64,000 nucleotides of DNA, taken from sequence record PV245934.1, one strand, 5' to 3'. Origin of the DNA: Escherichia phage sutha. Below, in pieces: positions 18,726-45,557 of the stretch. Below the pieces are notes generated by a model. The model was not told where the DNA came from. It made no database searches and was given only the letters and a program-made list of their open reading frames with translations. The stretch's first letter is position 1. The number at the start of each line of letters is the position of its first letter. The translations under genes were made by a program, and so were the position numbers.

Positions 18726-18971
18726 TTAACCACCAGTTACTTTCCACATATCTTCGTTTGCAGCAATCCATGCATCACGTTGATTTTCTTCGTATACAGT
18801 AGTATATGCTGCTTTTTCTGAAGGGAATATCTGGTAATGAGCACCAGAAATTTTGTGAACGTCAGAATAAAGAGGGAAAGCTACAGAAATTTCTTTTCCT
18901 TCAATTTTCTTATTTCCATCTAATTTCTGCTCAAACGTTTTGATATTAACATAACCGCGAGTACTAGCCAT
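18726..18971 (-). CDS. soc: small outer capsid protein Soc
   Basis: 81-aa ORF MASTRGYVNIKTFEQKLDGNKK...; late promoter TATAAATA upstream; hairpin downstream. Confidence 0.85.
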   Translation of the reverse strand: MASTRGYVNIKTFEQKLDGNKKIEGKEISVAFPLYSDVHKISGAHYQIFPSEKAAYTTVYEENQRDAWIAANEDMWKVTGG

Positions 18972-18999
18972 GTAATTCTCCTTTTATTTAAATTACATG

Positions 19000-19012
19000 A
19001 TTATTTATATCA
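19000..19012 (-). promoter_or_regulatory. late promoter TATAAATA upstream of soc
   Basis: + strand tatttata at 19003-19010 = TATAAATA on coding strand, about 30 nt before soc ATG. Confidence 0.55.
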
Positions 19013-19183
19013 GTCTTCAACGAAAACTTGTGCCAGGAATTCATGTTCATCTTGAATTTGTTTATATAAAGCCATTACAGCATTTATATTAGAGCTATCT
19101 ACTTTAAGCTGATAAGCATACCACTCGTATAAATTAATTAAAGCTTTTTGACGTCTAATAAATTCTTCTTTGGATATTTTCAT
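19010..19183 (-). CDS. hypothetical protein (57 aa)
   Basis: Hand translation MKISKEEFIRRQKALINLYEWYAYQLKVDSSNINAVMALYKQIQDEHEFLAQVFVED; ATGA overlap with upstream ORF; below ORF-track cutoff. Confidence 0.35.
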   Translation of the reverse strand: MKISKEEFIRRQKALINLYEWYAYQLKVDSSNINAVMALYKQIQDEHEFLAQVFVED

Positions 19184-19380
19184 TTTGAATGTTCTATAAT
19201 TAATTTTAAGGCTTCTTCGCTGACAAAAATTTCATCAGGACCTTCTTCTACAACCCAATCAACCACACGAAGCTGATTAGATAAGAGCTCGCATACGAGC
19301 TCTTTGTCATAATTTTTAAATAGCTGGTCAATACGTTTCTTGCGGGCTTTCTTAAGCTGGCGTTTATTTAAACGAGCCAT
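19180..19380 (-). CDS. hypothetical protein (66 aa)
   Basis: ORF between gene 56 and soc. Confidence 0.4.
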   Translation of the reverse strand: MARLNKRQLKKARKKRIDQLFKNYDKELVCELLSNQLRVVDWVVEEGPDEIFVSEEALKLIIEHSK

Positions 19381-19898
19381 TAATAACCTCGATCTTGACG
19401 AGCGAAGTTTTCAGCATTCTTCAAATAATAAAGTTTAAAGATTTCTTCAGCCGTAAGACCGAGACCTTGGAACATGTTCAGAACGAAATGAAGAATATCA
19501 ATCATTTCAAATTTAATTTCCAACTGGTCTTGAGGAGACAAATCAGTAATTAGAGTTTCACGACGTTCACCATGCTGCGACTTCCAAGGCTTCCATACAG
19601 CAGATGCATCTTTTTCACCATTGCTCATACCACCAAGAGAAGTCAGAAGTTCACGGAATTCATCATCAATGTAATCTTTCTGATTACGCAGCCAATCAAC
19701 AACTTCGCCTGCAGTAGCCAAATCATCAGGATGACGGTTATATTCAGGTTTATCTTTAGCTAAACGAACCTGCAAAGATTTCTGCATATCAAGCATAACC
19801 TGCAGCGGGTCTTTTTCATCACCGAGAATATCCCAATATTCGTTTTGAGCTTTATCAGCGCCTTCGATCAGTTGTGAACATTCATTAAAGTATGCCAT
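19380..19898 (-). CDS. 56: dCTP pyrophosphatase (dCTPase/dUTPase) gp56
   Basis: ORF 19380..19991 trimmed to ATG 19896-19898 (MAYFNECSQLIEGADKAQNEYWDILGDE), SD AAGGA; 172 aa, close to T4 gp56. Confidence 0.8.
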   Translation of the reverse strand: MAYFNECSQLIEGADKAQNEYWDILGDEKDPLQVMLDMQKSLQVRLAKDKPEYNRHPDDLATAGEVVDWLRNQKDYIDDEFRELLTSLGGMSNGEKDASAVWKPWKSQHGERRETLITDLSPQDQLEIKFEMIDILHFVLNMFQGLGLTAEEIFKLYYLKNAENFARQDRGY

Positions 19899-19969
19899 TA
19901 TTTTTCCTTTCAATTCATGGATTAGTAGATTAATTATACAATAAATATATAAAGCAATAAGGAGGACAT

Positions 19970-20170
19970 ATGGTACAAAAATTAATGGCACTTGTTAATG
20001 CCATCAAAGGTAATAAAAAACGTATAGCTTTTACTATTTCTGCTATGATAGGAATTTTACTTTGGAATTTTGTTTTATCGCCAGTTGCTCTTGCTCATGG
20101 CGTTAGTATTCCAGTAATTACTCTTGATACATTCGTAGATTTAGCATTTGCTTTAGTTGGGTTAATTTAA
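19970..20170 (+). CDS. hypothetical small hydrophobic protein; the only plus-strand ORF in an intergenic gap
   Basis: 66-aa ORF with consensus SD AAGGAGG 5 nt before ATG; hydrophobic; between divergent gene 56 and convergent gene 61. Confidence 0.4.
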   Translation: MVQKLMALVNAIKGNKKRIAFTISAMIGILLWNFVLSPVALAHGVSIPVITLDTFVDLAFALVGLI

Positions 20171-21195
20171 ATCTTAGCATATTTAGATAGACGCATTTTA
20201 GCCATCAACCCCTGAGCAATATTATTTTTCATATATTCCATAATTTGTTCAGGGGTTGCACCTTCCTTTCTAATCATATCATTAACATCTTTTGATTTCC
20301 AGGGAGATTTGTCCCAAAACATAACCCTTTCTCCTGCATCAACCAATTTAGTCATTCGTTTAATAGTGTCAGGATGACGAGGTTCATTATCTAAAACCCA
20401 TACACGTCTATCTTTAAATGGAACAATTTCTAGGTCTAATTGACCACCTGTAATAGCTATACCATTTTCAATAAAAAGTGAATCTATAGGTCCTTCTAGA
20501 ACATATACATCACCATCTTTGACTCGTTCGACTCCATATATTTTTGTTGCCTCAGGATAAGCTTTGATGGTGATATATTTTTGAGGAGCATCTTTCTTTA
20601 ATGCACGTCCTTGAAAAGACTCAGCTTTTCCATTAGCATTATAAATTGGAATAACAAGACGAGGCTCAGGTATTTCCTTTTTGTATGTTCCTGGTGCTAT
20701 GCTATTAACTAATTTAGGCCATTCGGTTGTAAACCAAAGATATTTCCATTTGTCCTTTGGAATACAACGAGCTTTTACGTATTTTATAATTGGATGGTCT
20801 TCCGCCAGTTTATCTAATCTAATACATGATGGAAGAGATTTAATTATTTTCTTCTCGGGTTGTTTAGGAAGTTCTTTAGGTTTTTCTACTGAACGACTTT
20901 TACCTTTTTCTTTTCTTATTTCAAAGATATACTCACGATATAAATCGGGTTCAAACTCCTTTAAATATATTCCGATTGGTGCATGATAGTTACAGTTATA
21001 ACAATGAATATTTCCTTCATTATTATCACCATAATACCATCCACGGGCTTTATTTTGGTCGGTTTTTGAATCTCCACAAACAGGGCATCTAAACCGCAAT
21101 TTAAAAGTTGAACTATTATTTACTTGTGTGAATTTAGGTAAATGAGCTAATGCACGGTATGCAAACTCATTATCAATCCAAGGTATTGATGACAT
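20167..21195 (-). CDS. 61: DNA primase gp61
   Basis: 342-aa ORF, zinc-binding CPVCGDS...CYNCNYH and Toprim-like core; size equals T4 gp61. Confidence 0.9.
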   Translation of the reverse strand: MSSIPWIDNEFAYRALAHLPKFTQVNNSSTFKLRFRCPVCGDSKTDQNKARGWYYGDNNEGNIHCYNCNYHAPIGIYLKEFEPDLYREYIFEIRKEKGKSRSVEKPKELPKQPEKKIIKSLPSCIRLDKLAEDHPIIKYVKARCIPKDKWKYLWFTTEWPKLVNSIAPGTYKKEIPEPRLVIPIYNANGKAESFQGRALKKDAPQKYITIKAYPEATKIYGVERVKDGDVYVLEGPIDSLFIENGIAITGGQLDLEIVPFKDRRVWVLDNEPRHPDTIKRMTKLVDAGERVMFWDKSPWKSKDVNDMIRKEGATPEQIMEYMKNNIAQGLMAKMRLSKYAKI

Positions 21196-24687: not shown

Positions 24688-25800
24688 TTACTTTCTGGAG
24701 ATTTTAAATTTTTCAACCTTTGAGTTAATCAATTCATCAACTTCAGCTTCAACAATTTCATTACTATCAATAGCACCTAACTGATAAGCACGTTTAATAG
24801 CATCTCGGAATGGTTGATGCTTAAATAAAGGACCCCAGAATGTAGTGCAATTGGTATCTTTTGCACGCCAAGATTTTTCTTCGCGAATCATCTCACCGGT
24901 TTCTTCATCAAGAAATTCACGAGCATACCAACCATTTTTAGGTTTTACTACAAATCCTAATTCAAGAGCCATATCTAACAATCCAGAATAAGGATCGATA
25001 CCACCGTCAAATTTAACATCAATAAAGAATTTACTTTTTTCTTTGACGGTACGAGATTTTTCTACATTTAGAACAAATTGATACCCCTGAAGATCAGAAC
25101 CATCTTTAATCTGGCGCTTACCGATAATGAATACAGTATCAGCCGAATACATTACGCCTGTACCACCTGTCATCACGGTTTTACTAAACATTTCAATTGT
25201 TTCAATTGTATGGTTAACCGCAACACATGGAATGTTTTTAATACTAAAATAAGGAGTAACAATACGGAATAATGACTTCAGTGATTTAGCACGAGTCATA
25301 TCTGCCACAGATTTTTCATTCAAGGCATCTTCCGTTTCTTTCTTAGAAGCCATATTACCAATTGAGTCGATGAATACAATAACCTTTTCACCACGCTCAA
25401 TAGCTTCAAGCTGATTCACCATATCAATTTTCAGCTGTTCAACTGACTGAATTGGCGTATGAATTACTCGTTCCGGGTCAACCCCCATGGATCGCAAATA
25501 AGCTGGAGTAATACCAAATTCGCTATCATAGAATAGACAAACTGCATCAGGATATTTGTTCAAATATGCCGCAACCATAGTCAAAGACATATTTGATTTA
25601 AAGTGTTTAGAAGGCCCTGCGAAAATAGTTAAACCAGACTGCATACCGCCATTAATCGCACCAGAAATAGCAATATTAAGCATTGGAATTTTTGTACGAA
25701 TTACATCCTTTTCATTAAAGAATTTAGATGTAGTCAGTTCAGCAGTCATTTTAGAAGTGGAAGCTTTAATCAAACGGGATTTTAAATCTGCAATAGACAT
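24688..25800 (-). CDS. uvsX: UvsX recombinase (RecA family), C-terminally truncated by apparent frameshift
   Basis: 370-aa ORF with RecA-like core; ends ...KFKISRK*; +1 frame continues 27 codons to stop at 24618-24620. Confidence 0.9.
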   Translation of the reverse strand: MSIADLKSRLIKASTSKMTAELTTSKFFNEKDVIRTKIPMLNIAISGAINGGMQSGLTIFAGPSKHFKSNMSLTMVAAYLNKYPDAVCLFYDSEFGITPAYLRSMGVDPERVIHTPIQSVEQLKIDMVNQLEAIERGEKVIVFIDSIGNMASKKETEDALNEKSVADMTRAKSLKSLFRIVTPYFSIKNIPCVAVNHTIETIEMFSKTVMTGGTGVMYSADTVFIIGKRQIKDGSDLQGYQFVLNVEKSRTVKEKSKFFIDVKFDGGIDPYSGLLDMALELGFVVKPKNGWYAREFLDEETGEMIREEKSWRAKDTNCTTFWGPLFKHQPFRDAIKRAYQLGAIDSNEIVEAEVDELINSKVEKFKISRK

Positions 25801-25878: not shown

Positions 25879-26727
25879 TTAATCAACTGCTATTGGATGA
25901 ATAGCATTAAACTTATGAAATGCTTCTGATTTTTCTTTACGCGAAACACACATGCGAAGAACCTTTAGTGGTTCATCTTCTTCACCCAACGATTTTCGTT
26001 TTTCAATATTCGATGTTTTCCAACGAGCTTGCTCTGGAAACTCTCTATTGATTTGTTCAAGCGCTCTATTATGTTTAGAATTACTACGAATTGAACTACA
26101 CCCGCCAGGAGCTTGTGCTTTTCCAGATACAACTAGATATTTGAACAAGGCCAAATGCGGATAACCTTGATTAATTAAATTGAGAAATGCATACATATCT
26201 TCGCATAAATCAATTTTTCCATACCCAATTTGTTCTGTAGTAAGTTTTCCAAGGTCATACCATGTATTCGTGAATCCATATGAGTTTTCACGATAATTAC
26301 CCCAAGATGAAGTAATTTTAAAAATTGGTAGACGAGCATGGCCATGATAATACCCGCAATCCATGGCATCCTCAACGTATTGAATCAATTCATAGAACTG
26401 TTCACGAGTTAATTGATTAATTTTATCTACACATCGGCGATCATCTCTTTTTCGCATTGAACTCATACGAATAGTAGTATCATCGTCAATCATCCAGATT
26501 CGTTGACCTGCATACATATCAGTAATTGCTTTACGAGTACCGGCAATTCCATTAACATCATCAGGAATAGTTACAATTTTAGCTTTAGACCCGTAAGCGT
26601 CATAATAAGCTTTTTCTTCATGTTCACGTACTACAATATGGGGTTCATAATCAGTCGGAAACATATCAAGGGCAGAAACTGCCCCTACGCGTTGATAACT
26701 TGGAATTACGAATTGAATCATTTCCAC
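25879..26727 (-). CDS. putative GT-A fold glycosyltransferase at the beta-gt locus (candidate beta-alpha-glucosyltransferase as in T2/T6)
   Basis: 282-aa ORF with IWMIDDDTT (DxD-type) motif; occupies slot between uvsX and 42 but does not resemble T4 beta-gt as I recall it. Confidence 0.45.
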   Translation of the reverse strand: MEMIQFVIPSYQRVGAVSALDMFPTDYEPHIVVREHEEKAYYDAYGSKAKIVTIPDDVNGIAGTRKAITDMYAGQRIWMIDDDTTIRMSSMRKRDDRRCVDKINQLTREQFYELIQYVEDAMDCGYYHGHARLPIFKITSSWGNYRENSYGFTNTWYDLGKLTTEQIGYGKIDLCEDMYAFLNLINQGYPHLALFKYLVVSGKAQAPGGCSSIRSNSKHNRALEQINREFPEQARWKTSNIEKRKSLGEEDEPLKVLRMCVSRKEKSEAFHKFNAIHPIAVD

Positions 26728-27458
26728 TCACCATTATAATCTTTTTTCGCAATATGAGTTTCGCCAGTTTTCCACCAATGGTCAACCAAATAAAAATGAC
26801 GGGAATACACATGAAGACTTCCGACATTCCATATAATGGAACCTGCTTTATACTGACGAGTTGAATCGCCTGCATTCAAATCAGATACTAATTTATCTAA
26901 TACGTATTTTTGCCATGCATAATCATTACGGAATCCGAAGACCACGTCATTTGAGCGCATGCTTACTACTGCATTGACTTTCTTATCACGAATCAGGTAC
27001 TGTACTGTATTCGTACACATGAAATCTGACATACCATTTTTATTGTAGTCAAATTGCATGGATGGACGAGTATAAATCATGATACCACGTCGAGAATCAG
27101 GATTTTGACCAAGTTCAGCTAAACACATGTCATATTGAGCATAGTTATCTTCTGACCAGATAGCCCAACCATAATTCGAGTTAATTTCACCTTTAGAAGA
27201 TGCTACCTGCTGCCAAATCTTTGGTGTTTCACCTGGAATATCTTTAACAAACAGACTTTGAGACTTGTACCATTCAAGTTCACGCTGAATGTATTCATCA
27301 TTAAGAGCGCCAAAAATAAACGGTTCATCTGCTACAAATGATGCGCCAATAATTTCAATAGTTTTAACACCAGTTTTATCAACTACGAAATCTTTTTCTT
27401 TTAATGCAAGCCCCAAATGAAGACGGATTTCTTCAACTGTCAAAGAGTCACTAATCAT
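26718..27458 (-). CDS. 42: dCMP hydroxymethylase gp42
   Basis: 246-aa ORF, thymidylate-synthase-like fold; size equals T4 gp42. Confidence 0.9.
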   Translation of the reverse strand: MISDSLTVEEIRLHLGLALKEKDFVVDKTGVKTIEIIGASFVADEPFIFGALNDEYIQRELEWYKSQSLFVKDIPGETPKIWQQVASSKGEINSNYGWAIWSEDNYAQYDMCLAELGQNPDSRRGIMIYTRPSMQFDYNKNGMSDFMCTNTVQYLIRDKKVNAVVSMRSNDVVFGFRNDYAWQKYVLDKLVSDLNAGDSTRQYKAGSIIWNVGSLHVYSRHFYLVDHWWKTGETHIAKKDYNGEWK

Positions 27459-36917: not shown

Positions 36918-37933
36918 TGTGTTGCCTCTACATATAACTGATTTGCATATTGAATAAGTGCTTCACGGTCAGAATCAGTGATGTCTGGAATTGCATTAAT
37001 GTATTCTTCCATCAACGTCTGAAGAGATTGAACTTCAACTTCTTCGCTATCATCTGACTCGACAGAGTTATCAATCTTTGACACAACTCGTAATGAATGC
37101 ACAACTTTTTCTAGTTCAGATTCGAACTTCGTTAGATTTTTGTCTACCTCAGTTACTATAACACGTACTGATAGATTTGTAAAATCTTTATAGTCAATTT
37201 TTCCCTTAAATGGATATTGAATTCGACGATGCCAGGTAGTGTTGTTTGGAATAAATTCCATTCGTTCTGTTTCTGTATCAAACATCCAGAACCCACGAGG
37301 GTCATTCTCGTCACCTGCAGTTAGTGTCCATGGTGTCCCAATATATCTGACGTTAGCAGCCTCAGAGATAGTATGGAAGTGACCAGACCACACCTCTTTA
37401 TAAGTCTTAAGGAAATCAGGTTCAAGACCGTGAGATTTCATTCCTTTATAAAAATAAAATCCATTCAGCTCCCAGTGACCGACACAAAAAGAAGCAGATG
37501 AAGTTTTGATGTGTTCAAGAATTTCACCAGTATTTTCTTCGCACATCCAAGGAATTAAATCAATCAAACATCCGTCAAAATCTACTGTAGTAGGCTTATC
37601 ATATACTTTAACATTAGGATATTTAGCCAAAAGCTCAGTAGAAGCATTTGGATGCATTACATTTTTATAGTGGAGATCGTGATTTCCTACAATAGTATGT
37701 AATGTGATTCCAGCGTCATCAAGCATTTGAACTATTTCACGGGCAAACTCCATAGTTTTATGCGTGATCGCTTTTCGTACATCAAAAATATCACCGTATT
37801 GAATCCATACAGTAATTCCATTTTTCTTAGAATATTCTATCGCTTGCTTAATTCCGTCAAGTTGAATACCGCGAATCCATTCATCATCAGCTTTAACGCC
37901 TAAATGCCAATCACCCAAGTTTAGTATTTTCAT
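36914..37933 (-). CDS. 47: recombination nuclease subunit gp47 (Mre11/SbcD-like phosphoesterase)
   Basis: 339-aa ORF, metallophosphatase motifs GDWH, GNHD; size equals T4 gp47. Confidence 0.9.
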   Translation of the reverse strand: MKILNLGDWHLGVKADDEWIRGIQLDGIKQAIEYSKKNGITVWIQYGDIFDVRKAITHKTMEFAREIVQMLDDAGITLHTIVGNHDLHYKNVMHPNASTELLAKYPNVKVYDKPTTVDFDGCLIDLIPWMCEENTGEILEHIKTSSASFCVGHWELNGFYFYKGMKSHGLEPDFLKTYKEVWSGHFHTISEAANVRYIGTPWTLTAGDENDPRGFWMFDTETERMEFIPNNTTWHRRIQYPFKGKIDYKDFTNLSVRVIVTEVDKNLTKFESELEKVVHSLRVVSKIDNSVESDDSEEVEVQSLQTLMEEYINAIPDITDSDREALIQYANQLYVEATQ

Positions 37934-38534
37934 GGTGTCTTTTCCATCCTAATTTAGCTGCTTTTGAAACTAGTTCTTTAATTTTTCCTTTTGTCCATTC
38001 AGGACCAGGAGGTTCATGACATAACATTTGCTTAACTCCGTTATTATACCATTTTTTACCTTTATTATGCGATGAAGCTTTAAATTTATTTGACCTTCCT
38101 TTTACATAGCCTTCTGGAATATACGGTAAAAAGGCAGATTTTCCTGTTAATGGGTCATGTGAATGTATGTTTCCTTTACAATTATGAGAACCATATAATG
38201 GATGATTTTGTCCTTTAATATCTCTTCCAAATGAACCTTTTGGAGCAGCATATGACATATTAAAGAATAATGGATTTTTAACCGCATCATGCAAACGTTG
38301 ATAATATAACTCACATTTAATAGCTTCTTCGCGCGTATCAAATTCATCTAAAATGCATGAATCAAATAAATGTGGGTTATCTGAAAGTTCTTCATTATAA
38401 ATTTTCTTATACTTTTTAGATAAAACTGATCCATGATATCCGGCTAAATGCCTATCTAAAGATGTAGATCCAATATAAAAAGGAGGAAGTTTATCTCCAC
38501 TATATATTGTTAAATAAGTTATATATTTTTTCAT
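37911..38534 (-). CDS. GIY-YIG family (Seg-like) homing endonuclease
   Basis: 207-aa ORF with N-terminal YITYLTIYSGDKLPPFYIGSTS (GIY...YIG) motif; 3' end overlaps gene 47 start by 23 nt. Confidence 0.55.
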   Translation of the reverse strand: MKKYITYLTIYSGDKLPPFYIGSTSLDRHLAGYHGSVLSKKYKKIYNEELSDNPHLFDSCILDEFDTREEAIKCELYYQRLHDAVKNPLFFNMSYAAPKGSFGRDIKGQNHPLYGSHNCKGNIHSHDPLTGKSAFLPYIPEGYVKGRSNKFKASSHNKGKKWYNNGVKQMLCHEPPGPEWTKGKIKELVSKAAKLGWKRHHENTKLG

Positions 38535-38694: not shown

Positions 38695-38712
38695 AAAGGG
38701 CCGAAGCCCTTT
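38695..38712 (-). terminator. CUUCGG-type stem-loop after alpha-gt
   Basis: + strand aaagggccgaagcccttt. Confidence 0.55.
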
Positions 38713-39913
38713 ATTTTGTAATAATGTCAAACTGTTCTTTAAAGCAGAAGCTTGAATCTTGGTGCTGATACAAAAATTCATAAGCTTTTTCGCGTTCACG
38801 GTCATAAAGAGCTCGGTCAGATGACAGTTCTTTAATACGCTCAAATGTTGATTCCATGCCATTTTCATCAAACCAAACGATACCGCTATCATGTGAAATT
38901 AACGGAGTATTATCAACACGGAATTTTAAATTTTCACCAGTAGATTTCCAAAATACTGGAATTGTTCCGCATGCACCAAGCTCGAGATGAGTATATTCTA
39001 AAGAACGTTGTAGATATTTTTTGTCCAACTTACTCAGCTGATAACCAAATCCGGATTTACGCATACGTTCAAGCATTTCGCTATTTACATAACGGTCAAG
39101 AATTTGCGTTGGCAAATTAGGAGCAATTTTAATTTGGTCTACTTGATGAAGACGATAATACTCGTATGGAATTCCTTTTTCTTTAATAGGAATGAACGCT
39201 GGAGAACGTTCCAGACCTTCCATAATAGTACTTAGTCCTGCAGGTTTAAGATGTTTTTCATGAAAATCAAACATCTGATAAAAGCCTTTCCATGTAGTAG
39301 TACGACCAATCCAACGGTTGATATTCATGTTAATTTCAGAAACATCTTTCCAGTAGGTTGATCGAACTTTCGCAATATCCATAGGAGGCTGAAAGTTATA
39401 TACGGTCGGTGCTTCTTCAATATCATCAAACAGAGAAACAGTTTCCGGATACCATTCTTTCATCAAAACTTTATTAAAGTCACCATTATCAGAATGACTA
39501 AAAATAACATCAGCTCGACGAACAGTTTCTTCTAATCCCAAATTTCGGCGCAAAGAAAGAGAAGAATGGTCATGTTGATAAACTACAACACGAACCGAAG
39601 GTTTAATGTTATCAATAATTTTTTTATAGTTATTAATTGTGTCTTCTTCAACTGAAGTAGCAGGAACTGAATTGATAATTAGAATATCACAATCATTTAC
39701 CAGCTTAAGGGTTTTATCGTATTCTTTTGCCAATAAAACCGGAATTGAAAATGATTTATAATCATGTGCGCAATTACGAGTAAATGATTTATCTTTAGCA
39801 TAAACCAAAGTTACTTCATGACCATTTTTAATAAACCAATCACGCTGCTCAAGAGAAAATTTAGTTACACCGCAACCTTCAAGACCTCGAGCCATAAAAA
39901 TACATACTTTCAT
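38711..39913 (-). CDS. a-gt: DNA alpha-glucosyltransferase
   Basis: 400-aa ORF MKVCIFMARGLEGCGVTKFSLEQRDWFIKNGHEVTLVYAKDKSF...; size equals T4 alpha-gt. Confidence 0.85.
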   Translation of the reverse strand: MKVCIFMARGLEGCGVTKFSLEQRDWFIKNGHEVTLVYAKDKSFTRNCAHDYKSFSIPVLLAKEYDKTLKLVNDCDILIINSVPATSVEEDTINNYKKIIDNIKPSVRVVVYQHDHSSLSLRRNLGLEETVRRADVIFSHSDNGDFNKVLMKEWYPETVSLFDDIEEAPTVYNFQPPMDIAKVRSTYWKDVSEINMNINRWIGRTTTWKGFYQMFDFHEKHLKPAGLSTIMEGLERSPAFIPIKEKGIPYEYYRLHQVDQIKIAPNLPTQILDRYVNSEMLERMRKSGFGYQLSKLDKKYLQRSLEYTHLELGACGTIPVFWKSTGENLKFRVDNTPLISHDSGIVWFDENGMESTFERIKELSSDRALYDREREKAYEFLYQHQDSSFCFKEQFDIITK

Positions 39914-44747: not shown

Positions 44748-45557
44748 GCTTCATCAGTAGAATTACAGCGTTTTAGTATAAGATGTCTAGAAACTTTTAT
44801 GGCATTTGAGCACTTTTTAATTGAATCATATTTAATACCGTCAACTGAAACGGTTTTGCTAGTTGGAGAAATTTTTCCATACATTGGATTTTTTGAACCA
44901 ACTTGAAGTCCTTTTAAAGCTTTTGAAAGCTTTTGTCTAGATTCCAATGACATGGGAGAATTCTTTTTACCTTCAATAATTCGCTTGCGATGAAGTTCGC
45001 GTTCTTCTTCACTCAAAGAATTGTAATATTTTTTAACACCGTTTGATATAGATAATTTATCTTTCTCAGACCGCTCTCCAGCTAATTTACTTCTAACATC
45101 TTTTCGCTTCATAGCTATGCTTACGGCTTTATTTAAATTTGCTTGATGCTCTGGCGTACGTTTATATTTCTTTAAAGCACGTGAAATAGCTATTTTAGTT
45201 TCTTCTGTTCTCTTTTTACCTTTATTTGCTAAACTATTTTTGCGGCGATGTTCAAGTGTCTGTTCATAGGCAGTTCCACCTTTTCCACCAGGTTTAATAT
45301 TATATGTATTTTCTTTTAGACAATACTCTTCGGTTACAAGTTCAGCTTCTTTATCATACATTTGTTTTTCATTATCAAAAACATGTAAAATTTCTTTATT
45401 AAAATTTTTTCTACCATGTTTTAATAAAGCGGCACGAATCAATGTTCCTGACCCCATATAACCGTCATTTATTTATGTTATCGGTGCTATGCGCACCGAT
45501 ATATTCCTTTGAATTAATTATATTTGTTATTTTATAAATTATATAATACCTATGCAT
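44723..45557 (-). pseudogene. GIY-YIG homing endonuclease gene split by frameshift (29-codon catalytic N-terminus + 244-aa body)
   Basis: ATG 45555-45557 opens MHRYYIIYKITNIINSKEYIGAHSTDNINK* (GIY-YIG motif), stop at 45468-45470; body ORF 44723..45457 in +1 frame carries NUMOD-like repeats; A-rich site ataaataaatgacgg. Confidence 0.5.

Follow-up and report, generated by a model that had tools for sequence, protein, structure and literature searches.

The window analyzed here is a 64,000-nucleotide stretch of phage DNA in which a single gene lies at the locus that carries the beta-glucosyltransferase gene in T4, between uvsX and gene 42 (Table 1). The open reading frame at 25879..26727 on the minus strand is genuine and, read from its GTG, encodes 282 amino acids, the length given in a preliminary description of this DNA. 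The real product is almost certainly shorter by two residues. The third codon of the frame, ATG (26721..26719), shares bases with the TGA that ends gene 42 (26720..26718), the two forming ATGA. A product of 280 aa, encoded by 25879..26721, is most likely because of this overlap and because the annotations of RB32, T2, EH2, Some, and RB14 all start the orthologue at that ATG, giving a gene of 843 nt and a product of 280 aa and likewise overlapping gene 42 by 4 nt. Residue numbers below refer to the 280-aa protein. The overlap also suggests that translation of the gene, here called ba-gt, is probably coupled to that of gene 42, with which it would share one mRNA.

Table 1. Coordinates of ba-gt, its sequence motifs, and associated genes in the window (fractions are counts among 47 aligned TAGT family members)
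Feature	Coordinates	Strand	Basis and remarks
Gene 56, dCTPase/dUTPase homologue; clears dCTP, allowing hmC to take the place of C	19383..19898	-	tblastn with T6 gp56
uvsX	24688..25800	-	Pfam T4_UVSX_C, E=5e-39
ba-gt (ggt), beta-glucosyl-HMC-alpha-glucosyltransferase	25879..26721	-	280 aa plus TAA stop; mechanical ORF reaches GTG at 26727
GGCSSIR (G206..R212), family-specific motif	26086..26106	-	G206 and G207, 41/47; C208, 38/47; R212, 46/47
E174-D175, candidate catalytic base region	26197..26202	-	D175, 41/47; helix H174-184 of the model begins here
IWMIDDDTT with DxD-type motif D79-D80-D81 (26479..26487)	26473..26499	-	D79, D80, and D81, 47/47
IPSYQR (I6..R11), first beta-strand and the loop after it	26689..26706	-	I6 and R11, 47/47; P7, 45/47; Y9, 43/47
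ATGA overlap of ba-gt start and gene 42 stop	26718..26721	-	Sequence; same 4-nt overlap in RB32, T2, EH2, Some, and RB14
Gene 42, dCMP hydroxymethylase; makes hm-dCMP	26718..27458	-	97% identical to T6 gp42; Pfam Thymidylat_synt; gene 42 in the RB32 annotation
alpha-gt, DNA alpha-glucosyltransferase; makes the alpha-glucosyl-hmC substrate of ba-gt	38711..39913	-	PF11440, E=1e-234

The placement between uvsX and gene 42, already proposed in the preliminary description, is borne out by the identification of both neighbors, and the gene order around ba-gt is the same in the window, RB32, T2, T6, EH2, and Some. Only a 78-nt spacer separates uvsX from ba-gt. T4 carries at this locus the beta-glucosyltransferase gene and the homing endonuclease gene segA, whereas the window has neither; a segA-type insertion between uvsX and ba-gt was looked for in the window and none was found. 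A sigma-70 promoter scan around ba-gt returned 11 sites, compared with 10.8 expected from shuffled sequence, and no promoter is called near the gene because such sites are no more frequent than in the shuffles.

Protein identity is 99.3% to RB32 ORF041c, 98.2% to the T2 protein over 280 aa, and 97.7% to the T6 protein over 261 aa. The ba-gt product matches PHROG 842 (“beta-glucosyl-HMC-alpha-glucosyltransferase”) over residues 2 to 277 (E=1e-89) and Pfam PF20691 (TAGT, for TET/JBP-associated glycosyltransferase) over model positions 2 to 205 of 205 with 37.5 bits, the curated gathering cutoff being 27.5 bits; NCBIfam holds no model for it. The comparison with T2 and T6 glucosyltransferases that the preliminary description had proposed as a check thus gave strong matches and supports its suggestion of a T2/T6-type transferase of the second glucose. 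Equally sound was its remark that the protein does not resemble T4 beta-glucosyltransferase: the best blastp match between the two is not significant (E=3.4), and the Pfam family of the T4 enzyme (PF09198) is unmatched. A T4 beta-glucosyltransferase gene relocated elsewhere in the window was considered separately and rejected, as tblastn over the whole 64 kb found no homologue (best E=1.5).

[quoted passage not shown] Sequence identity, predicted fold, motifs, and gene context come from the window, and the function of the enzyme and the DNA chemistry of T6 and its relatives come from the literature.

The gene is not new: it is widespread and carries correct annotations. Megablast with ba-gt matched 478 phage records, every one with at least 80% coverage of the gene and 446 at 95 to 99% DNA identity. 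These are mostly Tequatrovirus phages of Escherichia, Shigella, and Yersinia, and in many of them the gene is named beta-glucosyl-HMC-alpha-glucosyltransferase; a GenBank note on the RB32 orthologue reads “similar to T2, T6 b-gluc-a-gluc transferases.” The T2 and T6 glucosyltransferase genes were reportedly cloned by Winkler and Rueger in 1993. The window as a whole shows ∼97% DNA identity to phages ECO4, a51, vB_Eco_Some, and several BASEL phages, and RefSeq records with 97% DNA identity to the window name the gene correctly. The BASEL paper describes its Tequatrovirus phages in a generic statement as hydroxymethyl-glucosylated and does not type their glucosyltransferases. The finding is therefore ordinary, since hundreds of T4-like phages carry the gene. 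Both a-gt and a T2-type ba-gt are present in 12 of 14 T4-like sequenced RB phages (PMC6024577), and the authors who described the Durham Tequatrovirus phages also place the TAGT at the T4 beta-GT position (PMC13390438). It is the T4 arrangement at this locus that is rare: alpha-GT is combined with beta-GT in 6 of 753 glucosyltransferase-encoding phage genomes, and the usual pairing is that of a TAGT with alpha-GT or beta-GT (PMC13216743).

A sequence search of the PDB found no solved structure of any TAGT family member: the single ba-gt protein gave chance matches only (E>1), and the sole match of the 47-member profile was a GT2 enzyme (E=0.023). The fold was therefore assessed by structure prediction. 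The model is a single Rossmann-like alpha/beta/alpha domain with GT-A topology, and a two-domain GT-B fold is not seen in it, in agreement with the GT-A-like fold expected in the preliminary description from the motif IWMIDDDTT, which is indeed present (residues 75 to 83). The C-terminal 80 residues are family specific.

All of the residues that are invariant in the 47-member alignment (I6, R11, R63, and D79 to D81) are present in the window protein. In the family profile, IPSYQR aligns with IPTYNR of the GT2 enzyme 9jma, and this motif (IPSYxR in the family) would form the nucleotide-binding loop. MIDDD aligns with FLDDD of the same GT2 glucosyltransferase, in keeping with the position of a DxD motif after the fourth strand of the GT-A topology; in the predicted model D79 to D81 stand at the end of strand E74-78, and by analogy they would hold a divalent metal and the UDP-sugar. 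The chemistry is expected to be inverting because the donor is alpha linked and the product beta linked, and D175 is a candidate for the general base of an inverting GT-A enzyme. The position of E174-D175 at the start of a helix would be like that of the “ED” motif of GT2 enzymes. GGCSSIR falls in a lower-confidence part of the model (residues 201 to 210, pLDDT of ∼67).

The closest known systems are the T2 and T6 ba-gt genes (PHROG 842) and RB32 ORF041c, with which the window gene shares the length of 280 aa, 98 to 99% identity, the locus, the 4-nt overlap, and the partners alpha-gt, gene 42, and gene 56. Within PF20691, the window protein has in common with the family the IPSYxR and DDD motifs and the conserved R63 and R212. 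Most TAGT members are metagenomic or phage proteins that are 13 to 35% identical and of unproven specificity, and the family also takes in the GT domain of animal GREB1, which is related to the phage TAGTs (PMC7968844). Identity to GT2-like inverting enzymes of the GT-A class (WrtF, 9omh; the AvpGT/PglI-like beta-1,3-glucosyltransferase, 9jma; SpsA, 1h7l; and TarP, 6h1j) is 8 to 15%; the acceptor of such enzymes is a lipid-linked or polymeric glycan, whereas the ba-gt enzyme acts on a sugar carried by a base in DNA. T4 beta-glucosyltransferase (PF09198) occupies the same locus, uses the same UDP-glucose donor, and likewise leaves a beta-linked product on phage hmC DNA, but it has a GT-B fold (PMC13216743) and accepts hmC, while the ba-gt enzyme has a predicted GT-A fold and accepts alpha-glucosyl-hmC, and their sequences are dissimilar.

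The partners that make the substrate (alpha-gt, gp42, and gp56) were all found in the window. The alpha-gt named in the preliminary description is confirmed at its position, and its product is 98.5% identical to that of T2, 99% identical to that of Some, and 90.8% identical to that of T6. The window gp56 is 71.5% identical to T6 gp56 over all 172 aa (tblastn, E=9e-83), whereas the neighbors 61, 42, and nrdD are 97 to 99% identical; it is as if this allele of gene 56 had diverged locally or been exchanged.

The pathway would run as follows. (i) gp56 and gp42 would convert dC to hm-dC in the nucleotide pool and so supply hm-dCTP, which the polymerase would place in DNA as hmC. (ii) After replication, alpha-gt would attach an alpha-linked glucose to hmC in the DNA. 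(iii) The ba-gt enzyme, as its function is known from T6, would then draw on UDP-glucose for a second glucose, joined to the alpha-glucose by a beta-1,6 linkage, giving gentiobiosyl-hmC. This last transfer to alpha-glucosyl-hmC DNA is supported by T6 genetics (PMC11078745) and by classical enzymology cited in a recent study (PMC13216743). Deletion of ba-gt from T6 leaves only alpha-glucosyl-hmC, with loss of gentiobiosyl-hmC, for which the gene is thus required, and renders the phage more sensitive to Brig1, a DNA glycosylase that excises alpha-glucosyl-hmC and does not degrade T6 DNA (PMC11078745). In the window phage, gentiobiosylation would likewise mask alpha-glucosyl-hmC from defenses such as the Brig1 glycosylase. 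GmrSD acts on all three sugar forms (PMC13216743).

The presence of the gene does not by itself tell how far the DNA is modified, since T2, whose gene product is 98.2% identical to that of the window, has only ∼5% gentiobiosyl-hmC despite carrying ba-gt (PMC6024577). T6 DNA has ∼72%, a contrast with T2 that was observed 60 years ago. Among the Durham phages, HPLC/MS detected beta-glucosyl-hmC in none; Solly, TB37, QOTSP, NR1, CP, Some, and EH2 have about one-third hmC, two-thirds alpha-gentiobiosyl-hmC, and a trace of alpha-glucosyl-hmC, and in EL, BGP, and Geo the pattern is intermediate, at 1:2:2 (PMC13390438). The window has Some and EH2 among its closest relatives, and the ba-gt proteins of these two phages differ from that of the window by 5 and 3 residues, respectively, none at conserved positions.

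The T2 ba-gt (AP018813, 7283..8125) is the common allele (that of RB14 and EH2) with R11H and P251S as its only changes (corresponding to 26689..26691 and 25969..25971 in the window). The 5' part of the T2 allele is found at 100% identity in seven T2 records and SV76 only. A hypomorphic R11H/P251S enzyme is suggested by the sequence as the cause of the low gentiobiosylation of T2 and could explain the T2/T6 contrast because none of the 47 aligned family members departs from R11.

The deposited T6 genomes also carry lesions in this gene. In MH550421 (7138..7980), codon 10 is a TAG amber codon, and for this reason the gene is annotated from Met20, with a product of 261 aa. In AP018814 and NC_054907 (911..1750), one Asp of the invariant DDD is lost in frame, leaving 279 aa, so that one residue of the putative catalytic motif is missing from the RefSeq protein that recent work has taken as “T6 TAGT.”

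The window allele differs from the T2, T6, and RB32 proteins by a few conservative substitutions; those that set it apart from the common allele are K46, V50, and I101, at nonconserved positions. It is a full-length frame with all invariant and near-invariant residues intact, and it has neither R11H nor P251S nor either of the T6 lesions. The DNA of the window phage is predicted with moderate confidence to be T6-like, with mostly gentiobiosyl-hmC and no beta-monoglucosyl-hmC, because the allele keeps every invariant residue and because the ba-gt/alpha-gt pair is closest to those of phages with about two-thirds gentiobiosyl-hmC. In its broadest form the proposal would be that the allele of ba-gt, rather than its mere presence, sets the sugar pattern of T-even phages, that a T2 hypomorph explains ∼5% versus ∼72%, that the window phage is T6-like, and that laboratory passage, as the two different T6 lesions would then imply, has repeatedly relaxed selection on the gene or selected against it; we offer this combination tentatively and consider it more doubtful than probable.

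Three other readings of the gene were weighed. The enzyme could be only weakly active, as in T2, leaving mostly alpha-monoglucosyl-hmC with a few percent gentiobiosyl-hmC. The low value in T2 with the gene present and the intermediate pattern of EL, BGP, and Geo are precedents for this, and the window alpha-gt is much closer to that of T2 than to that of T6, the ba-gt protein also being close to that of T2. However, the two T2-specific substitutions, one of them at an invariant residue, are absent from the window, and the window shows 99% identity in alpha-gt and 98.2% in ba-gt to Some, with its measured value of about two-thirds gentiobiosyl-hmC. In addition, a tblastn search of the window with the dam methyltransferase of T2, whose gene adjoins gene 56 in that phage, found no homologue; dam is carried by T2 and by EL, BGP, and Geo, the Durham phages with intermediate gentiobiosylation, although its absence is linked to high gentiobiosylation by correlation only (PMC13390438). 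On this evidence weak activity is unlikely, if the least improbable of the three. With no dam found (locus 18756..21195), the window is like the phages that lack this gene and have high gentiobiosylation.

A functional replacement of T4 beta-glucosyltransferase, which would place a single beta-glucose directly on hmC beyond the reach of alpha-gt, is very improbable. Its position is syntenic with that of the T4 gene, bare hmC would be available as a substrate (about one-fourth to one-third of hmC is unglucosylated in T2, T6, and their relatives [PMC6024577, PMC13390438]), and solitary TAGT homologues, which may have other substrates, are known in phages without alpha-gt or beta-gt (PMC13216743). 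Nevertheless, beta-glucosyl-hmC is undetected in the Durham phages that carry the gene (PMC13390438), deletion of T6 ba-gt turns gentiobiosyl-hmC into alpha-glucosyl-hmC (PMC11078745), and the predicted GT-A fold is unrelated to the GT-B fold of the T4 enzyme. There is similarly little likelihood of an inactive remnant or of a different sugar donor, with glucose modification unaffected in either case. The lesions in MH550421 and AP018814 show that damaged copies are deposited, and the frameshifted uvsX described below indicates that the window sequence is not free of error or mutation, but ba-gt itself is a full-length frame with its invariant and near-invariant residues in place and with near identity to the RB32 protein. 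The T2/T6-type beta-glucosyl-HMC-alpha-glucosyltransferase, with predicted T6-like activity, is the preferred reading.

For the window itself this carries little weight, as ba-gt is a textbook component of T2/T6-type phages. Its value is predictive: a phage with alpha-gt and an intact ba-gt and without beta-gt should carry mostly gentiobiosyl-hmC and no beta-glucosyl-hmC and should resist defenses specific to alpha-glucosyl-hmC, such as Brig1, while staying sensitive to GmrSD-type enzymes. Such predictions could be of use in the choice of phages for therapy and in the reading of defense system screens. What is modestly new is confined to the comparison of alleles, i.e., R11H in T2 and the lesions in T6 stocks.

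Several further features of the window were recorded. A G+C-rich hairpin of 9 bp (GGGGCAG-UUU-CUGCCCU), terminator-like and with a U-rich stretch after it, lies at 26667..26687 on the minus strand, within ba-gt codons 12 to 18. The 91-nt fold that contains it is only modestly more stable than shuffled sequence (z=−2.2), and a terminator is annotated under ba-gt in the record of Yersinia phage fPS-65 as well. The hairpin may be due to chance or may serve as an attenuator between these two genes, gene 42 and ba-gt, and no function is claimed for it.

The uvsX product has 370 aa, compared with the usual 391 to 393. An extra A in the A-run at 24702..24705 (TTTAAAATC, versus TTTAAATC in RB32) shifts the frame, and for this reason the protein ends in ...VEKFKISRK*. 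The next frame still encodes the conserved acidic C-terminal tail, SPESKSKSAADLETDLDQLSDMEEFNE, and the change is either a genuine UvsX truncation or a homopolymer sequencing error.

Two further loci are reminiscent of homing endonucleases. Between gene 47 and alpha-gt, an ORF of 207 aa (37911..38534, minus strand) is probably a seg-like homing endonuclease gene because it has a weak GIY-YIG match (E=8e-4, below the Pfam cutoff); it is 98.6% identical in phage Some and absent from this position in the T2 and T6 records. Adjoining nrdD, the minus strand of 45209..45551 has segA-like (GIY-YIG) similarity spread over two frames (tblastn HSPs 45551..45471 and 45472..45209) and could represent a diverged or frameshifted homing endonuclease of the segH type.
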